From: Phragmitibacter sp.
GTDB taxonomy: Bacteria > Verrucomicrobiota > Verrucomicrobiia > Verrucomicrobiales > Verrucomicrobiaceae
Direction: 5' to 3'
Length of the DNA stretch: 24,943 nt
Assembly (NCBI GenBank): GCA_025361865.1
Contig: JANYJH010000294.1
Span: forward strand, 1 to 24,943
The position numbers and the translations under genes were made by a program. The notes beneath the pieces were generated by a model. The model was not told where the DNA came from, made no database searches, and worked only from the letters and a program-made list of their open reading frames with translations. Shown here in pieces: positions 16,795 through 22,608 of the stretch (its first letter is position 1; each line of letters begins with the position of its first letter).

Positions 16795-18789
16795 ATGGAC
16801 AGTCAACACGCCGCCGAAAGAGCCCTCATTCTCCGCACGGAACTGGAGCGTCACAACGCGCTCTACTATCAACAAGCGACGCCAGAGATCAGCGATGTCC
16901 AGTTTGATGCCTTGCTGCGGGAGTTACAGGAAATCGAGAAGGCTCATCCCGAACTTCTGACGCCGGATTCACCGACGCAACGGGTTGGCGGAGCGCCTTT
17001 GGACGGTTTCTCTCAGATCACGCATTCGGTGCGGATGATGAGTTTAGACAACACCTATTCCGAAGGTGAGATGCGGGACTTCTTCACGAAACTTCAGAAG
17101 GGTCTCGGCAAAGAAACCGTCCGCTGCATCATCGAGCCGAAGGTGGATGGAGTCGCCGTGGCCGTGCGCTATGAGAACGGCATCTTGAAGTATGCGGCGA
17201 CGCGCGGCGATGGTCGCGTGGGCGATGATGTGACGCAGAATCTCAAGACCATCCGCACGCTGCCCTTGAAGCTTCCGGCGCATCTTCCGCAGACTTTTGA
17301 AGTGCGTGGTGAGGTTTACATGACCCGAGCGGGTTTTGATCAGATGAATCGCGAGCGTGAAGAAGCGGGCGAGCCTCTTTATGCGAACCCGCGCAATACC
17401 ACAGCGGGTTCATTGAAACAGCTCGATCCCCGCGAGACGGCGAAGCGACCGCTCAGCGTGATCTTCTACGGTGTGGGAGATTTGGGCGAAGCGAAGCTGA
17501 GTTCTCATGCGGAGATCCATCGTTTGCTCAAAGACGCCGGTTTGCCGATGGCCGCTCATGTCTGGGTTTGTGATACGGCGGATGAAGTGATCGAAGCCAT
17601 CCGTGATCTCGATGTGAAGCGGAAATCACTGCCTTACGACACCGATGGCGCGGTGCTAAAAGTGGACTCTTTTACTGAGCAACGTGACCTTGGGGAAACC
17701 AGCAAAGCCCCGCGCTGGGCCATCGCCTACAAGTATGCGCCGGAGCAGGCCGAGACGCGACTTCTCGCGGTGGATATTCAGGTCGGTCGCACGGGAGCGC
17801 TGACGCCGGTGGCACGGCTTGAACCCGTCTTCCTCAGCGGCTCCACGGTCTCCAATGCCACGCTGCATAACTTTGAAGAAATCGAGCGCAAGGACATCCG
17901 CGTGGGTGACTTTGTGATCATTGAAAAAGCCGGCGAGATCATCCCGGCGGTGGTCTCCGTGAACAAGGACAAGCGGACGGGCGGGGAGCTTCCTGTCCCC
18001 ATTCCAACGGCCTGTCCCATCTGCGGAACAGCCGTGACGAAGGACGAAAGCCAGGTAGCTCTGCGTTGCCCGAACCCTGATTGCTCAGAGCAAGTGAAGC
18101 GTCGCATTGAACACTTCACGAGCCGTGGAGCGATGGACATTCGCGGTCTCGGTGAACAGGTCGTCGCGCAGCTCGTGGATGCGAAGCTCATTCATAATGT
18201 GTGCGATCTTTATGACCTCAATGAGCTGTCTCTCGCCAAGCTGGAGCGACAAGGAACGAAGAGCATCGAGAACCTGTTGAAGGGCGTCCAGGAAAGCAAG
18301 CAGCAGCCCCCGTGGCGGCTTGTCTTCGGACTCGGCATTCTGCATGTCGGCGTATCTTCCGCGCGGTCGCTGATGGAGCACTTTGGCTCTGTGGATGCCC
18401 TCGGCAAAGCGGAAACCGAAGACCTTCTCAAAGTGCAGGACATCGGCAGCATCGTGGCTCAAAGCGTGCATGATTGGTTCCGTGAAGAGCGCAATCTTAT
18501 GCTGCTGAGTCGCCTGCGCAGCGCTGGTCTTCTCTTTGCCAATCCGATCATTGAACAAGCCTCAAACAAGTTCGCCGGAAGCACTTGGGTCATCACGGGA
18601 ACGCTGAGCCAAGGCCGCGAAGAAATCGCGGACATCATTCGCGCCAACGGTGGAAAGGTCTCTTCCAGCGTTAGTGCCAAGACCAGCTACCTACTCGCGG
18701 GCGAGGAAGCTGGAAGCAAGCTGGAGAAGGCCACGAAGCTCAAGGTGAAGGTGCTGAATGAAGCAGACTTCCGGGCGATGTTGAGTTAG
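16795..18789 (+). CDS. ligA: NAD-dependent DNA ligase
   Basis: Full domain set: adenylation KxDG motif ([18 protein letters not shown]), OB fold, Cys4 zinc finger (CPICGT...CPNPDC), HhH region and a C-terminal BRCT ([11 protein letters not shown]...). Confidence 0.97.
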
Positions 18790-19280
18790 TCAAGCGTCAC
18801 CGCTTTTGCCCGTGATTCCGCTGCGATGCGCTCACGGAATTTGAGCAACTTCTCACGTAGCATCTCATCACTTACCGCCAAGATTTGCAAGGCGAGCAGG
18901 CCAGCATTGCGGGCGTTTCCAATGGCTACCGTGGCTACGGGGATGCCTGCGGGCATCTGCACGATGGAGAGCAGGGAGTCCATGCCTTTCAGAGCCTTGG
19001 ATTCTACGGGCACGCCGATGACAGGCAGCACGGTGTGACTGGCGATCATCCCCGGCAGATGGGCGGCTCCACCTGCTCCAGCGATGATGACGCGGAGACC
19101 TCGCCCGATGGCGGACTTCGCATAGTCGGCCATGTCATCTGGAGTGCGATGCGCGGACACGACCTTTGCTTCAAAGGGGATGCTGAACTCGCGGCAAGTC
19201 TCTGCCGCAGCCCGCATCGTGGGCCAGTCAGAGTCACTGCCCATGATGATTCCGATGAGAGGTGTGCTATCTTGATTCAT
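18786..19280 (-). CDS. purE: N5-carboxyaminoimidazole ribonucleotide mutase
   Basis: [14 protein letters not shown]...VVSAHRTPD...[14 protein letters not shown]...GVPV PurE signature. Its stop overlaps the convergent ligA stop by about 2 nt. Confidence 0.95.
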
Positions 19281-19286
19281 AAGGGA

Positions 19287-20456
19287 TCATTCTTTAAAGT
19301 GGATGCCATGCGCCGCGCTGGTGGCCGTGTGAAGGGCTTCCTCGGCGCTATCACCCAGAGCGGTGACGTGGCCCATTTTACGTCCGGGTGAGGCGCGCAG
19401 TTTGCCATAGAGGTGAACCCGTGCGCGGGGGATGGCGAGCGCTTCTCCGATGCCGCAGGGCGCTCCGCTGCCAGTGGTGTTTGCGAGCAGATTAACCATC
19501 GCCGCAGGGCTACGCATTTCCGTATTCCCCAGAGGAAGCCCGAGGATGGCGCGGATGTGGTTTTCAAACTGGGAGCAGTCACAGGCTTCGAGCGTGTAGT
19601 GGCCGGAGTTGTGAACTCGCGGAGCCATTTCATTCACCACCAGTGTGCCATCCTTCAACAGGAAAAACTCAACTCCGAATGTCCCCACGCCGTCCACTTC
19701 ATTCACGGCGCGCAAGGCCATCTGCTTGGCGAGTTTGGTGAGTTCAGAGGAGATGGCCGCCGGAGCGAGCACACTGCTGCAAACATGATTTTCCTGCCGA
19801 GATTCCACCACGGGATAAATGGCCGTCTCACCCGTGCTGCTGCGGGTGACCATCACGGCCAGTTCCATGACAAAGGGGCACCATTTCTCCACATATAAAC
19901 CGGAAGTCAAGCCACCGAGCTTTTTCACTGCTGCATCCAGATCCGCCTCTGCATTCACCGTGCAGTTTCCTGTGCCGTCATAGCCGAGCGTGCGTCGTTT
20001 GAGAACGAACGGATAGCCCACGGCGCGGGCAGCATCGGTCAGCTCTTGGGTGGAAGCGATGGCCTGGAACTCCACCACCGGAATACCCGCCTGACTCAGC
20101 GTTTGTTTCTGCACGAGCTTATCCTGAACCAGCCGCATGGTCTTGGAGGAAGGCAGCACCGTGTGGCCGCGCTGCTCAAGATCAGCGAGCAAGTTCGCAT
20201 CCACGAACTCATTCTCCAGCGTGATGACATCCGCATCCTGCGCGAAGGCTCGTAGCGTCTCAGGATCAGCCCAATCTCCTACGCAGCATTCGGCAACGGC
20301 GTGCTTCGCCGGACATACTGACGATGAGGCCAATACGCGAACGCTAATCCCAAGCTGCGACGCGGCCCGAGCCAGCATGAGGGCGAGCTGGCCACCGCCG
20401 AGGATGCTGATGGTGATGTATCGAGGAGGGTCAGTGTTGATGAAAACGCGGTGCAT
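19287..20456 (-). CDS. purK: N5-carboxyaminoimidazole ribonucleotide synthetase (ATP-grasp)
   Basis: ILGGGQLALMLA N-terminus, ATP-grasp motifs and a PurK-like C-terminus. It lies 6 nt upstream of purE on the same strand. Confidence 0.94.
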   Translation of the reverse strand: MHRVFINTDPPRYITISILGGGQLALMLARAASQLGISVRVLASSSVCPAKHAVAECCVGDWADPETLRAFAQDADVITLENEFVDANLLADLEQRGHTVLPSSKTMRLVQDKLVQKQTLSQAGIPVVEFQAIASTQELTDAARAVGYPFVLKRRTLGYDGTGNCTVNAEADLDAAVKKLGGLTSGLYVEKWCPFVMELAVMVTRSSTGETAIYPVVESRQENHVCSSVLAPAAISSELTKLAKQMALRAVNEVDGVGTFGVEFFLLKDGTLVVNEMAPRVHNSGHYTLEACDCSQFENHIRAILGLPLGNTEMRSPAAMVNLLANTTGSGAPCGIGEALAIPRARVHLYGKLRASPGRKMGHVTALGDSAEEALHTATSAAHGIHFKE

Positions 20457-20467
20457 GGAGTGATGAC

Positions 20468-22167: not shown

Positions 22168-22220
22168 GAGTGTTGTGTGGGTGTGAGGCTTGCGAACAGG
22201 ATGTTTCTGGTGTTTATTTA

Positions 22221-22256
22221 CATGAATCTAAATACATGAGCTCTAATTCATGTATT
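22221..22256. promoter_or_regulatory. Palindromic operator-like site in divergent sbtA / wHTH-regulator promoter region
   Basis: Perfect 9-bp inverted repeat AATACATGA-N8-TCATGTATT, with an additional CATGAAT/ATTCATG half-site copy just upstream. The region is AT-rich, in the 120-bp gap between divergent genes. Confidence 0.5.
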
Positions 22257-22287
22257 GCATTACAGTTCTTTAACGTCAATCCGAAAA

Positions 22288-22608
22288 ATGAAAAAATCTG
22301 AGACACCGCGCCCAGAGCCTTCTGGTTGGACCTTCTTCACGAACCATGCGCATGTGCTGCTATGCCTGGCTTCTGATCCAGAGATGCGATTACGTGACCT
22401 CGCCGCCACCGTCGGCATTACAGAACGCGCCGTTCACAAGGTGGTTTCAGAGCTGGAAGAGGGCGGCGTGCTGGAGCGGGAAAAACAGGGACGGCGGAAC
22501 GTCTATACCATTCACGGTAAGCTTCCGCTGCGGCATCCGGTGGAGTCGCACTGCACGGTGCGGGGACTCATCAAGTTCGTGATTGAATCACGCCCCAAGC
22601 CCCGCTGA
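22288..22608 (+). CDS. Winged-helix (MarR/ArsR-like) transcriptional regulator
   Basis: ~107 aa with an HTH-like segment LRDLAATVGITERAVHKVVSELEEGGVLEREKQGRRNVY. It is divergent from sbtA. The track start at 22255 is TTG and overlaps the palindrome; the ATG at 22288 was preferred. Confidence 0.68.
   Translation: MKKSETPRPEPSGWTFFTNHAHVLLCLASDPEMRLRDLAATVGITERAVHKVVSELEEGGVLEREKQGRRNVYTIHGKLPLRHPVESHCTVRGLIKFVIESRPKPR

Follow-up and report, generated by a model that had tools for sequence, protein, structure and literature searches.

Heterotrophs need bicarbonate for PurK, the enzyme that makes N5-carboxyaminoimidazole ribonucleotide (N5-CAIR) in purine synthesis. At ambient CO2 the bicarbonate requirement of non-autotrophs takes in PurK, acetyl-CoA carboxylase, carbamoyl-phosphate synthase and pyruvate carboxylase, and heterotrophs without a carbonic anhydrase (CA) or a bicarbonate importer fail under this condition (PMC6689103; bioRxiv 10.64898/2026.09.08.750065). 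The same physiological logic, met elsewhere by MpsAB/DAB transporters or a cytoplasmic CA (Staphylococcus aureus, Bacillus subtilis, Escherichia coli can), is apparent in the locus that we describe here. It lies in a stretch of 24,943 nucleotides from the freshwater bacterium Phragmitibacter sp. (Verrucomicrobiota; assembly GCA_025361865.1, contig JANYJH010000294.1, positions 1 to 24,943), hereafter the window, and consists of genes for an SbtA-family permease, a beta-class CA predicted to be exported, PurK and PurE, with a small winged-helix regulator encoded divergently. Unlike MpsAB/DAB supply, its transporter is of the SbtA family and the genes for supply adjoin those of a single consumer, purKE. 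The initial annotation had proposed that a bicarbonate importer and an exported CA provision PurK from one operon; this interpretation is largely supported, and in our view the cluster very probably couples a module for inorganic-carbon supply with the enzymes that consume its product.

The permease is best compared with the cyanobacterial SbtA-SbtB systems (TC 2.A.83), with which it shares a Pfam family over its full length and homology to the solved Synechocystis SbtA. In that protein the Na+ site is made up of main-chain oxygens of F110, G111, A112, A320 and S322, and the side chains of S114, Y140, S324 and S327 contact bicarbonate in a docking model supported by mutagenesis (Liu et al., PMC8352866). 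Many relatives of the window permease resemble the cyanobacterial systems further in that the permease gene is directly followed by a P-II gene and a LysR regulator is encoded divergently. The window cluster departs from them in that it has no SbtB, carries a small winged-helix protein in place of LysR control, differs in two of the four docked bicarbonate contacts and would serve an anabolic carboxylation rather than the carboxysome and RuBisCO. For the CA, a described counterpart is the periplasmic alpha-CA of Rhodopseudomonas palustris, which equilibrates the periplasmic CO2/HCO3- pool and thereby aids uptake (Puskas et al. 2000, as described in PMC10880623). Both would be extracytoplasmic enzymes supporting inorganic-carbon uptake; unlike the R. 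palustris enzyme as described there, the window CA is of the beta class (PRK15219), is predicted to be of lipoprotein type and is encoded directly beside the permease that it would feed. In mammalian cells the mTORC1-SLC4A7 axis raises bicarbonate import specifically for de novo nucleotide synthesis (Ali et al. 2022, as cited in PMC10912719). This likeness is one of analogy only: the mammalian axis has a transporter of an unrelated family, translational control in a eukaryote and no operon.

The cluster and its gene products

The genes and control elements of the locus are the following, in the coordinates of the window.

21187-22167, minus strand: Sbt_1/SbtA-family permease, 326 aa, first gene of the cluster (open reading frame [ORF] and PF05982), putative Na+/HCO3- symporter
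20468-21160, minus strand: beta-class CA, 230 aa, counted from a conserved internal ATG of a longer ORF (PF00484, PRK15219)
21101-21160, minus strand: predicted CA signal peptide with lipobox, residues 1-20 (pattern and hydrophobicity check)
19287-20456, minus strand: purK, N5-CAIR synthetase, 389 aa, the ATP- and bicarbonate-consuming step (TIGR01161/NF004679)
18786-19280, minus strand: purE, N5-CAIR mutase (class I PurE), 164 aa (PF00731, TIGR01162)
22168-22287: divergent control region between permease and regulator, 120 nt, with blocks conserved across relatives
22219-22256: predicted operator with three half-sites, formed by two overlapping perfect 9-nt inverted repeats
22274-22279, minus strand: TTGACG, a -35-like hexamer for a putative permease promoter (sequence and conservation)
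22288-22608, plus strand: small winged-helix regulator, 106 aa, divergent from the permease
16795-18789, plus strand: ligA, convergent with purE

The permease gene stands first on the minus strand and is followed by the CA gene, purK and purE, with the regulator gene divergent. The gaps of 26 nt (permease to CA), 11 nt (CA to purK) and 6 nt (purK to purE), read again from the sequence, agree exactly with those of the initial annotation, and this tight spacing suggests that the four genes are probably co-transcribed. At the far end of the cluster, purE (minus strand) and ligA (plus strand) overlap by 4 nt in their stop codons (18786-18789), leaving no room for a terminator between the two convergent units. 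A consensus promoter and terminator scan of 18600-22700 returned no more sites than shuffled sequence and none between the genes, and thus neither backs nor contradicts an operon. Within the cluster, no riboswitch or other RNA element was found at the Rfam gathering threshold, and neither the ORF list nor a profile search gave a P-II gene. Carboxysome and RuBisCO genes are absent from the window and from the recurrent neighbour clusters of the 80 related loci considered below.

That the permease would score as Sbt_1 was borne out by a match to PF05982 of 384.2 bits (cut-off 27; E=6e-115), in which residues 14-320 cover positions 1-307 of the 308 in the profile; no NCBIfam model matches it. Against the Synechocystis SbtA structure 7cye (E=1.9e-33), both halves of the inverted repeat align, residues 11-152 with 15-156 and 168-322 with 214-370. 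The window protein is shorter (326 aa, as compared to 374 aa in cyanobacterial SbtA) because most of the central cytoplasmic loop is absent. Using the binding-site residues given in PMC8352866, the alignment shows the Na+ site region to be kept (Y106, G107, S108, A272 and S274, within local motifs GSVS and AASAS). S110, S274 and S276 correspond to SbtA S114, S322 and S324, of which S322 is a Na+ ligand through its main-chain oxygen, so that the bicarbonate-site serines S114 and S324 have counterparts in S110 and S276. The other two docked-bicarbonate side chains are replaced (Y140 by L136, S327 by A279), and L136 is invariant within the Verrucomicrobia permease subgroup. As judged from these alignments, the permease is clearly of the SbtA family, but its predicted substrate site is not identical to that of cyanobacterial SbtA.

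The second protein matches Pro_CA (PF00484, 129.5 bits against a cut-off of 25.7; E=1.8e-37) and the NCBIfam subfamily PRK15219 (253.7 bits against 221). Alignment with Mycobacterium tuberculosis Rv3588c (1ym3/2a5v; E=1.4e-29) shows the Cys-His-Cys zinc ligands and the Asp-Arg dyad to be intact (C80, D82, R84, H133 and C136). Its N-terminus reads MKHHFHMALAIIATSNLIS before the cysteine at position 20 (MKHHFH-MALAIIATSN-LIS, then C20) and conforms, in a pattern test only, to a lipoprotein signal of the Sec/signal peptidase II type, with a positive n-region, a hydrophobic core and a lipobox ([LVI][ASTVI][GAS]C, here L17-I18-S19-C20). The enzyme is thus predicted to be exported and lipid-anchored, probably on the periplasmic side, as the initial annotation had held, and its relatives are alike in this respect: all 13 distinct permease-adjacent CAs with a complete N-terminus have an N-terminal signal sequence (the CA of L084, whose gene is cut by a contig end, was left out of the count). 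The signal is of the lipobox type in Verrucomicrobia and resembles a signal peptidase I (SPI) type in Chloroherpetonaceae. Among the distinct Verrucomicrobia homologues that carry the CA, the lipobox cysteine is present in 9 of 9 and the pattern as used in 7 of 9. These seven include L009, which reads LTNC and matches only because Asn was allowed at -1; the L090/L091 sequence reads LMSC. A beta-CA adjoins the permease in 10 of the 80 relative loci. In L011, a 100-aa CA fragment lies downstream of the permease with its signal and lipobox N-terminus intact (L011:2235-2534), suggesting decay of an ancestral regulator-permease-CA arrangement in that lineage.

A cytoplasmic CA that feeds PurK directly would require the hydrophobic N-terminus to be a mis-called start or an inward-facing membrane tether. 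An alternative start at Met7 and a signal call made by pattern rather than by a dedicated predictor would allow for this. The n-region charge, hydrophobic core and lipobox-position Cys are, however, conserved in Verrucomicrobia, SPI-like signals take their place in Chloroherpetonaceae, and the PRK15219 subfamily model itself carries an N-terminal extension. Exported partner CAs also fit uptake, because a cytoplasmic CA would let imported bicarbonate escape as CO2 and so dissipate it (argument in PMC10880623). We therefore give a cytoplasmic location hardly any credence and continue with a CA that is predicted to be exported.

The identities that the initial annotation had assigned to the CA, purK and purE were all confirmed above cut-off. 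PurK exceeds the equivalog cut-offs of NF004679 (416.5 bits against 326) and TIGR01161 (405.4 against 318.4), and its domains PF22660, PF02222 and PF17769 give the ATP-grasp plus PurK_C architecture. PurE, with purK 6 nt upstream, matches PF00731 (E=3.6e-68) and TIGR01162 (222.5 bits against 149.6). PurK uses bicarbonate, and cyanobacterial purK mutants need high CO2 (PMC10880623). A further gene connected to purine synthesis, folD (methylenetetrahydrofolate dehydrogenase/cyclohydrolase, which supplies formyl groups), lies at 12535-13407 on the minus strand, 5 kb from purE. We considered folD as part of the module and rejected this, since it was not found again beside the permease elsewhere and probably has no connection with the cluster.

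Recurrence of the permease-purKE linkage

The conservation of the linkage was examined in 80 species-representative genomes with a permease 48-90% identical to that of the window, the flanks of which were searched with the window proteins. In 15 of them, purK and/or purE lies within 6 kb of the permease. By chance, 0.16-0.38 such loci would be expected for genomes of 2.5-6 Mb (binomial P<1e-19), and counting no more than 7 independent events still gives P<1e-6. The two genes are the most frequent enzyme neighbours of the permease, at ~40-90-fold above expectation; ligA, which served as an internal control in the same search, was near the permease only in the window's own lineage. Linked genomes belong to five phyla, namely Verrucomicrobiota, Planctomycetota, a gammaproteobacterium, Gemmatimonadales and Deinococcota, the last with purE 2.3 kb from the permease. 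There are at least seven gene orders among the linked loci: sbt-PII-purK-purE, purE-purK-sbt-PII, purK-purE-sbt-PII, sbt-PII-purE-purK, purEK divergent from sbt, purE-sbt, and the sbt-CA-purK-purE of the window. In a neighbour-joining tree built from the permeases, about nine separate clades hold the linked loci, including the window, and unlinked loci are interspersed among them.

Closer to the window, a permease of identical sequence is found, every time with the gene arrangement of the window, in a Verrucomicrobiota metagenome-assembled genome (MAG) contig and several sequencing runs. The regulator divergent from sbt-CA-purK-purE is kept in relatives with a 90-94% identical permease, which, together with the 15 linked genomes, answers in the affirmative whether the linkage extends beyond this genome. 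The same five-gene cluster occurs on contigs of 280-364 kb in relatives whose regulator is 90% identical. Between purE and ligA, L094 and L095 have two additional genes, so that the cluster remains whole as its flanks vary. At 85% permease identity, the regulator is divergent from sbt-purK-purE without the CA and in a different downstream context. In L096, a metagenome contig with the same cluster, no purK was called between purE and the CA (L096:2875-3905), which may reflect a disrupted gene or an assembly fault.

All parts of the cluster are of known families, and the association of sbtA with purKE is itself real and conserved. In the literature that we found on SbtA-family permeases, bicarbonate transport, CA and purK/purE, no sbtA(-sbtB)-purKE linkage is described, nor is the small regulator or its operator, and none of the papers found describes any inorganic-carbon supply gene joined to purKE. 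In a review of the dissolved inorganic carbon (DIC) toolkit, purK and purE figure only as markers of how bacteria are adapted to the CO2 level (PMC10880623).

The other neighbours of the permease broaden this picture. A P-II gene follows it directly in 50 of the 80 relatives (PF00543, E about 1e-19), including some that are 77-78% identical; only P-II matches of ~300 nt starting within 80 nt of the permease stop were counted. The lack of an SbtB partner, to which the initial annotation had drawn attention, thus holds for the window cluster and is a local feature, not one of the family. A divergent LysR regulator is present in 22 of the 80 loci and the small winged-helix regulator in 28, and the two occur together only in L027, where the LysR-like ORF has 98 aa and lies ~1.5 kb upstream of the permease.

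PurK, phosphoenolpyruvate (PEP) carboxylase and pyruvate carboxylase all use bicarbonate, and all three are encoded beside permeases of this group. L051 has, after a divergent LysR gene, CA, sbt, the P-II gene, purK, purE and pyruvate carboxylase in succession on one strand (L051:9036-12545); L078 has ppc, purK, purE, sbt and the P-II gene (L078:2040-3398); L035 has CA, sbt, the P-II gene and purB; and in L014 ppc is convergent with the permease. In L051 and L078, several bicarbonate-consuming enzymes are encoded together with the permease. The provisioning had initially been described as dedicated to PurK. This has to be given up, since 65 of the 80 permeases have no purKE beside them and the neighbours also include PEP carboxylase, pyruvate carboxylase and purB; by gene neighbourhood, PurK is the most frequent putative client of such permeases, not the sole one. 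A doubled arrangement is seen in the Chloroherpetonaceae MAGs L032 (L032:3166-7281) and L033, in which two Sbt_1 genes lie ~1 kb apart on the same strand. An exported (SPI-type) beta-CA precedes the first permease and an ArsR-like helix-turn-helix ORF stands between the two; P-II genes follow each permease in L032 and were detected only after the first in L033.

Several observations weigh against the supply-module interpretation. Besides the 65 permeases without purKE nearby, relatives at 80-90% identity (L009, L005 and L006) have only the regulator divergent from the permease and CA, or from the permease, and the coupling is therefore facultative. In L009, with a 90% identical permease, a PD-(D/E)XK transposase-family gene and a superoxide-dismutase-like ORF follow the CA in place of purKE (L009:7824-8729), which hints at a rearrangement at the CA junction. 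The conserved core is made up of regulator, operator and permease, not purKE. Together with the other carboxylases among the neighbours, these cases would suit a general module for inorganic-carbon or pH homeostasis that provides for all carboxylases of the cell, or for buffering, and in which purKE are incidental neighbours with neither shared regulation nor a special relationship to the permease. We consider such incidental adjacency unlikely because of the recurrence of the linkage, its gene orders and the number of clades in which it is found. Moreover, the five-gene unit stays intact while the flanks change, and the 11- and 6-nt gaps leave no space in the window for a separate promoter of purK or purE.

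The remaining adverse points concern what is transported, in which direction, and where the CA acts. The signal peptide of the CA is a prediction by pattern alone, two of the four docked-bicarbonate contacts are replaced in the permease, and to our knowledge no substrate has been measured for any non-autotroph member of this permease family. For the Shewanella homologue SO_3758, the only one from a heterotroph on which we found a study, the direction was stated by the authors to be unknown, with efflux favoured on the basis of docking and formate-tolerance data (PMC12093963). An exporter, or a carrier of another small anion such as formate, would accommodate these data and the non-conservation of Y140 and S327, with the CA acting on exported bicarbonate. 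It would, however, leave unexplained why the partner CAs are always extracytoplasmic alongside cytoplasmic consumer enzymes. It also sits poorly with the recurrent linkage to the cytoplasmic bicarbonate consumers PurK, PEP carboxylase and pyruvate carboxylase, with the linkage to P-II/SbtB-like and LysR regulators as in cyanobacteria, and with the uptake of DIC by SbtA-family members of autotrophic Proteobacteria (PMC10880623; PMC6689103). Export by the window permease, or transport of another anion, is in our view quite improbable. The linkage to bicarbonate consumers and the exclusively exported CAs instead provide independent genomic evidence for a role in import, and the permease is probably an importer and probably coupled to Na+.

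The divergent regulator and its predicted operator

The regulator ORF opens at TTG 22255 (117 codons). Homologue alignments place the conserved start at ATG 22288 (MKKSETP...), which gives a protein of 106 aa and an intergenic region of 120 nt. The analysis assigned it to no specific regulator family. Only weak, generic winged helix-turn-helix matches were obtained in Pfam and NCBIfam, and public databases carry only generic names for it. The AlphaFold2 model (pLDDT 85.7) is a winged helix with a single C-terminal helix, for which the best Foldseek matches are MarR and ArsR/SmtB proteins at a TM-score of about 0.55; searching the PDB by sequence yielded no significant match (best E=0.07, SmtB). 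Membership of ArsR/SmtB was rejected, the match to NF033788 (HTH_metalloreg) being 27.6 bits against a cut-off of 55, so that only the fold is alike. Membership of MarR was rejected as well, with 25.2 bits against 27 for MarR_2 and 23.7 against 24.6 for MarR. MarR proteins typically have ~140-150 aa with N- and C-terminal dimerisation helices, as compared with 106 aa and a single C-terminal helix here. The regulator shares with the ArsR/SmtB and MarR repressors a predicted winged helix-turn-helix plus C-terminal helix, a small divergent gene and a palindromic operator predicted to overlap a promoter. Unlike either, its family has invariant motifs of its own, TNH.H and LRH..E.H. W14, F16, T18, N19 and H22 are invariant in the alignments and H20 nearly so; these are followed by a GITERAV recognition helix, G68-R69-(R70)-N71-x-Y73 and the C-terminal motif L81-R82-H83-x-x-E86-x-H88, in which L81, R82, H83, E86 and H88 are invariant. 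The invariant residues on either side of the recognition helix are candidates for sensing a signal.

Divergence of a winged-helix regulator from the cluster, with a perfect palindrome in between, had been part of the initial annotation, and both the winged-helix profile and the repeats bear it out. Two perfect 9-nt inverted repeats are present, one of TACATGAAT (22219-22227) with ATTCATGTA (22246-22254) and the other of AATACATGA (22231-22239) with TCATGTATT (22248-22256), which together make up three half-sites of the TACATGAA/TTCATGTA type across 22219-22256. The pattern is unique in the window, where shuffled sequences average 0.12 matches. Its core is TACAYGAA-N6-TTCRTGTA, and the fuller form is AATACAYGAA-N5/6-TTCRTGTAWT followed by the third half-site. 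It is conserved between the permease and regulator genes in Verrucomicrobiales, in one Leptospiraceae genome, where regulator and permease are on the same strand, and in one Armatimonadetes genome; in a gammaproteobacterium, Gemmatimonadales and Opitutae-like genomes it is degenerate or variant. By this conservation, the palindrome is a predicted operator common to these loci, and the regulator is seldom found apart from permeases of this subgroup.

On the permease side, AATACA (22256-22251) lies 17 nt downstream of TTGACG and is a possible -10 element that overlaps the first operator arm. At the TTGACG position, 17 nt upstream of the first half-site, GGTTGACG is conserved in relatives; the consensus promoter scan did not call the TTGACG/AATACA pair. 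The operator thus probably overlaps the -10 region of the permease promoter in what would be a classic repressor layout, and for this reason the regulator is read as a putative repressor.

Elsewhere in the window, a c-di-AMP (ydaO-type) riboswitch at 9582-9752 on the plus strand (RF00379, 45.8 bits against a gathering threshold of 38) is unrelated to the cluster; downstream of the riboswitch are an ORF of 66 aa (9855-10055) that has two Cys pairs and a gene for an SPFH/Band-7 protein of 593 aa (10169-11950). Between the regulator and a pyrroloquinoline quinone (PQQ)-like beta-propeller gene, DUF433 (22704-22928) and DUF5615 (22877-23260) are encoded on the plus strand as a putative toxin-antitoxin-like pair. 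This slot is variable, being occupied in the close relatives L090, L094 and L095 by a protein of 520-523 aa without a Pfam match. Around 1000-3000 the G+C content falls to ~0.455-0.49, as compared with ~0.55-0.60 elsewhere in the window. The long ORFs at 376-2004, 1760-2818 and 169-888 have no Pfam match.

A proposed supply route and its meaning

Taken as a supply module, the cluster would operate as follows. The lipid-anchored beta-CA, on the periplasmic side, would convert CO2 to bicarbonate, the CO2 coming from the environment or from respiration as it leaks from the cell. The SbtA-family permease would take up this bicarbonate, probably with Na+. In the cytoplasm, PurK would combine aminoimidazole ribonucleotide (AIR), bicarbonate and ATP to give N5-CAIR, which PurE would convert to carboxyaminoimidazole ribonucleotide (CAIR). 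The winged-helix protein would bind the three-half-site operator and repress the cluster, and probably its own gene, until a signal relieves the repression.

We speculate, and offer this only as a tentative extension of the supply-module interpretation, that heterotrophs of dilute fresh water may be bicarbonate-limited for purines and that SbtA, together with an exported CA, may have been wired repeatedly to purKE. The winged-helix proteins with the TNH.H and LRH..E.H motifs could then be a previously unrecognised repressor family that responds to inorganic carbon or a purine intermediate and, in five phyla or more, takes the place of the LysR and SbtB control of cyanobacteria. By the names of their records, and by these only, lakes and glacier-fed streams are the source of many of the related genomes.

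The function of SbtA-family permeases, and even the direction in which they transport, is unsettled in non-photosynthetic bacteria. The linkage to purKE bears on this question, and the main value of the locus is as evidence on the role of these permeases in such organisms. The regulator and operator add a defined pair. Bicarbonate import for nucleotide synthesis in mammalian cells offers a conceptual parallel. The linkage further singles out the carboxylation of AIR as a reaction for which heterotrophs can run short of bicarbonate, and suggests that the acquisition of inorganic carbon may matter to heterotrophs in low-alkalinity waters.

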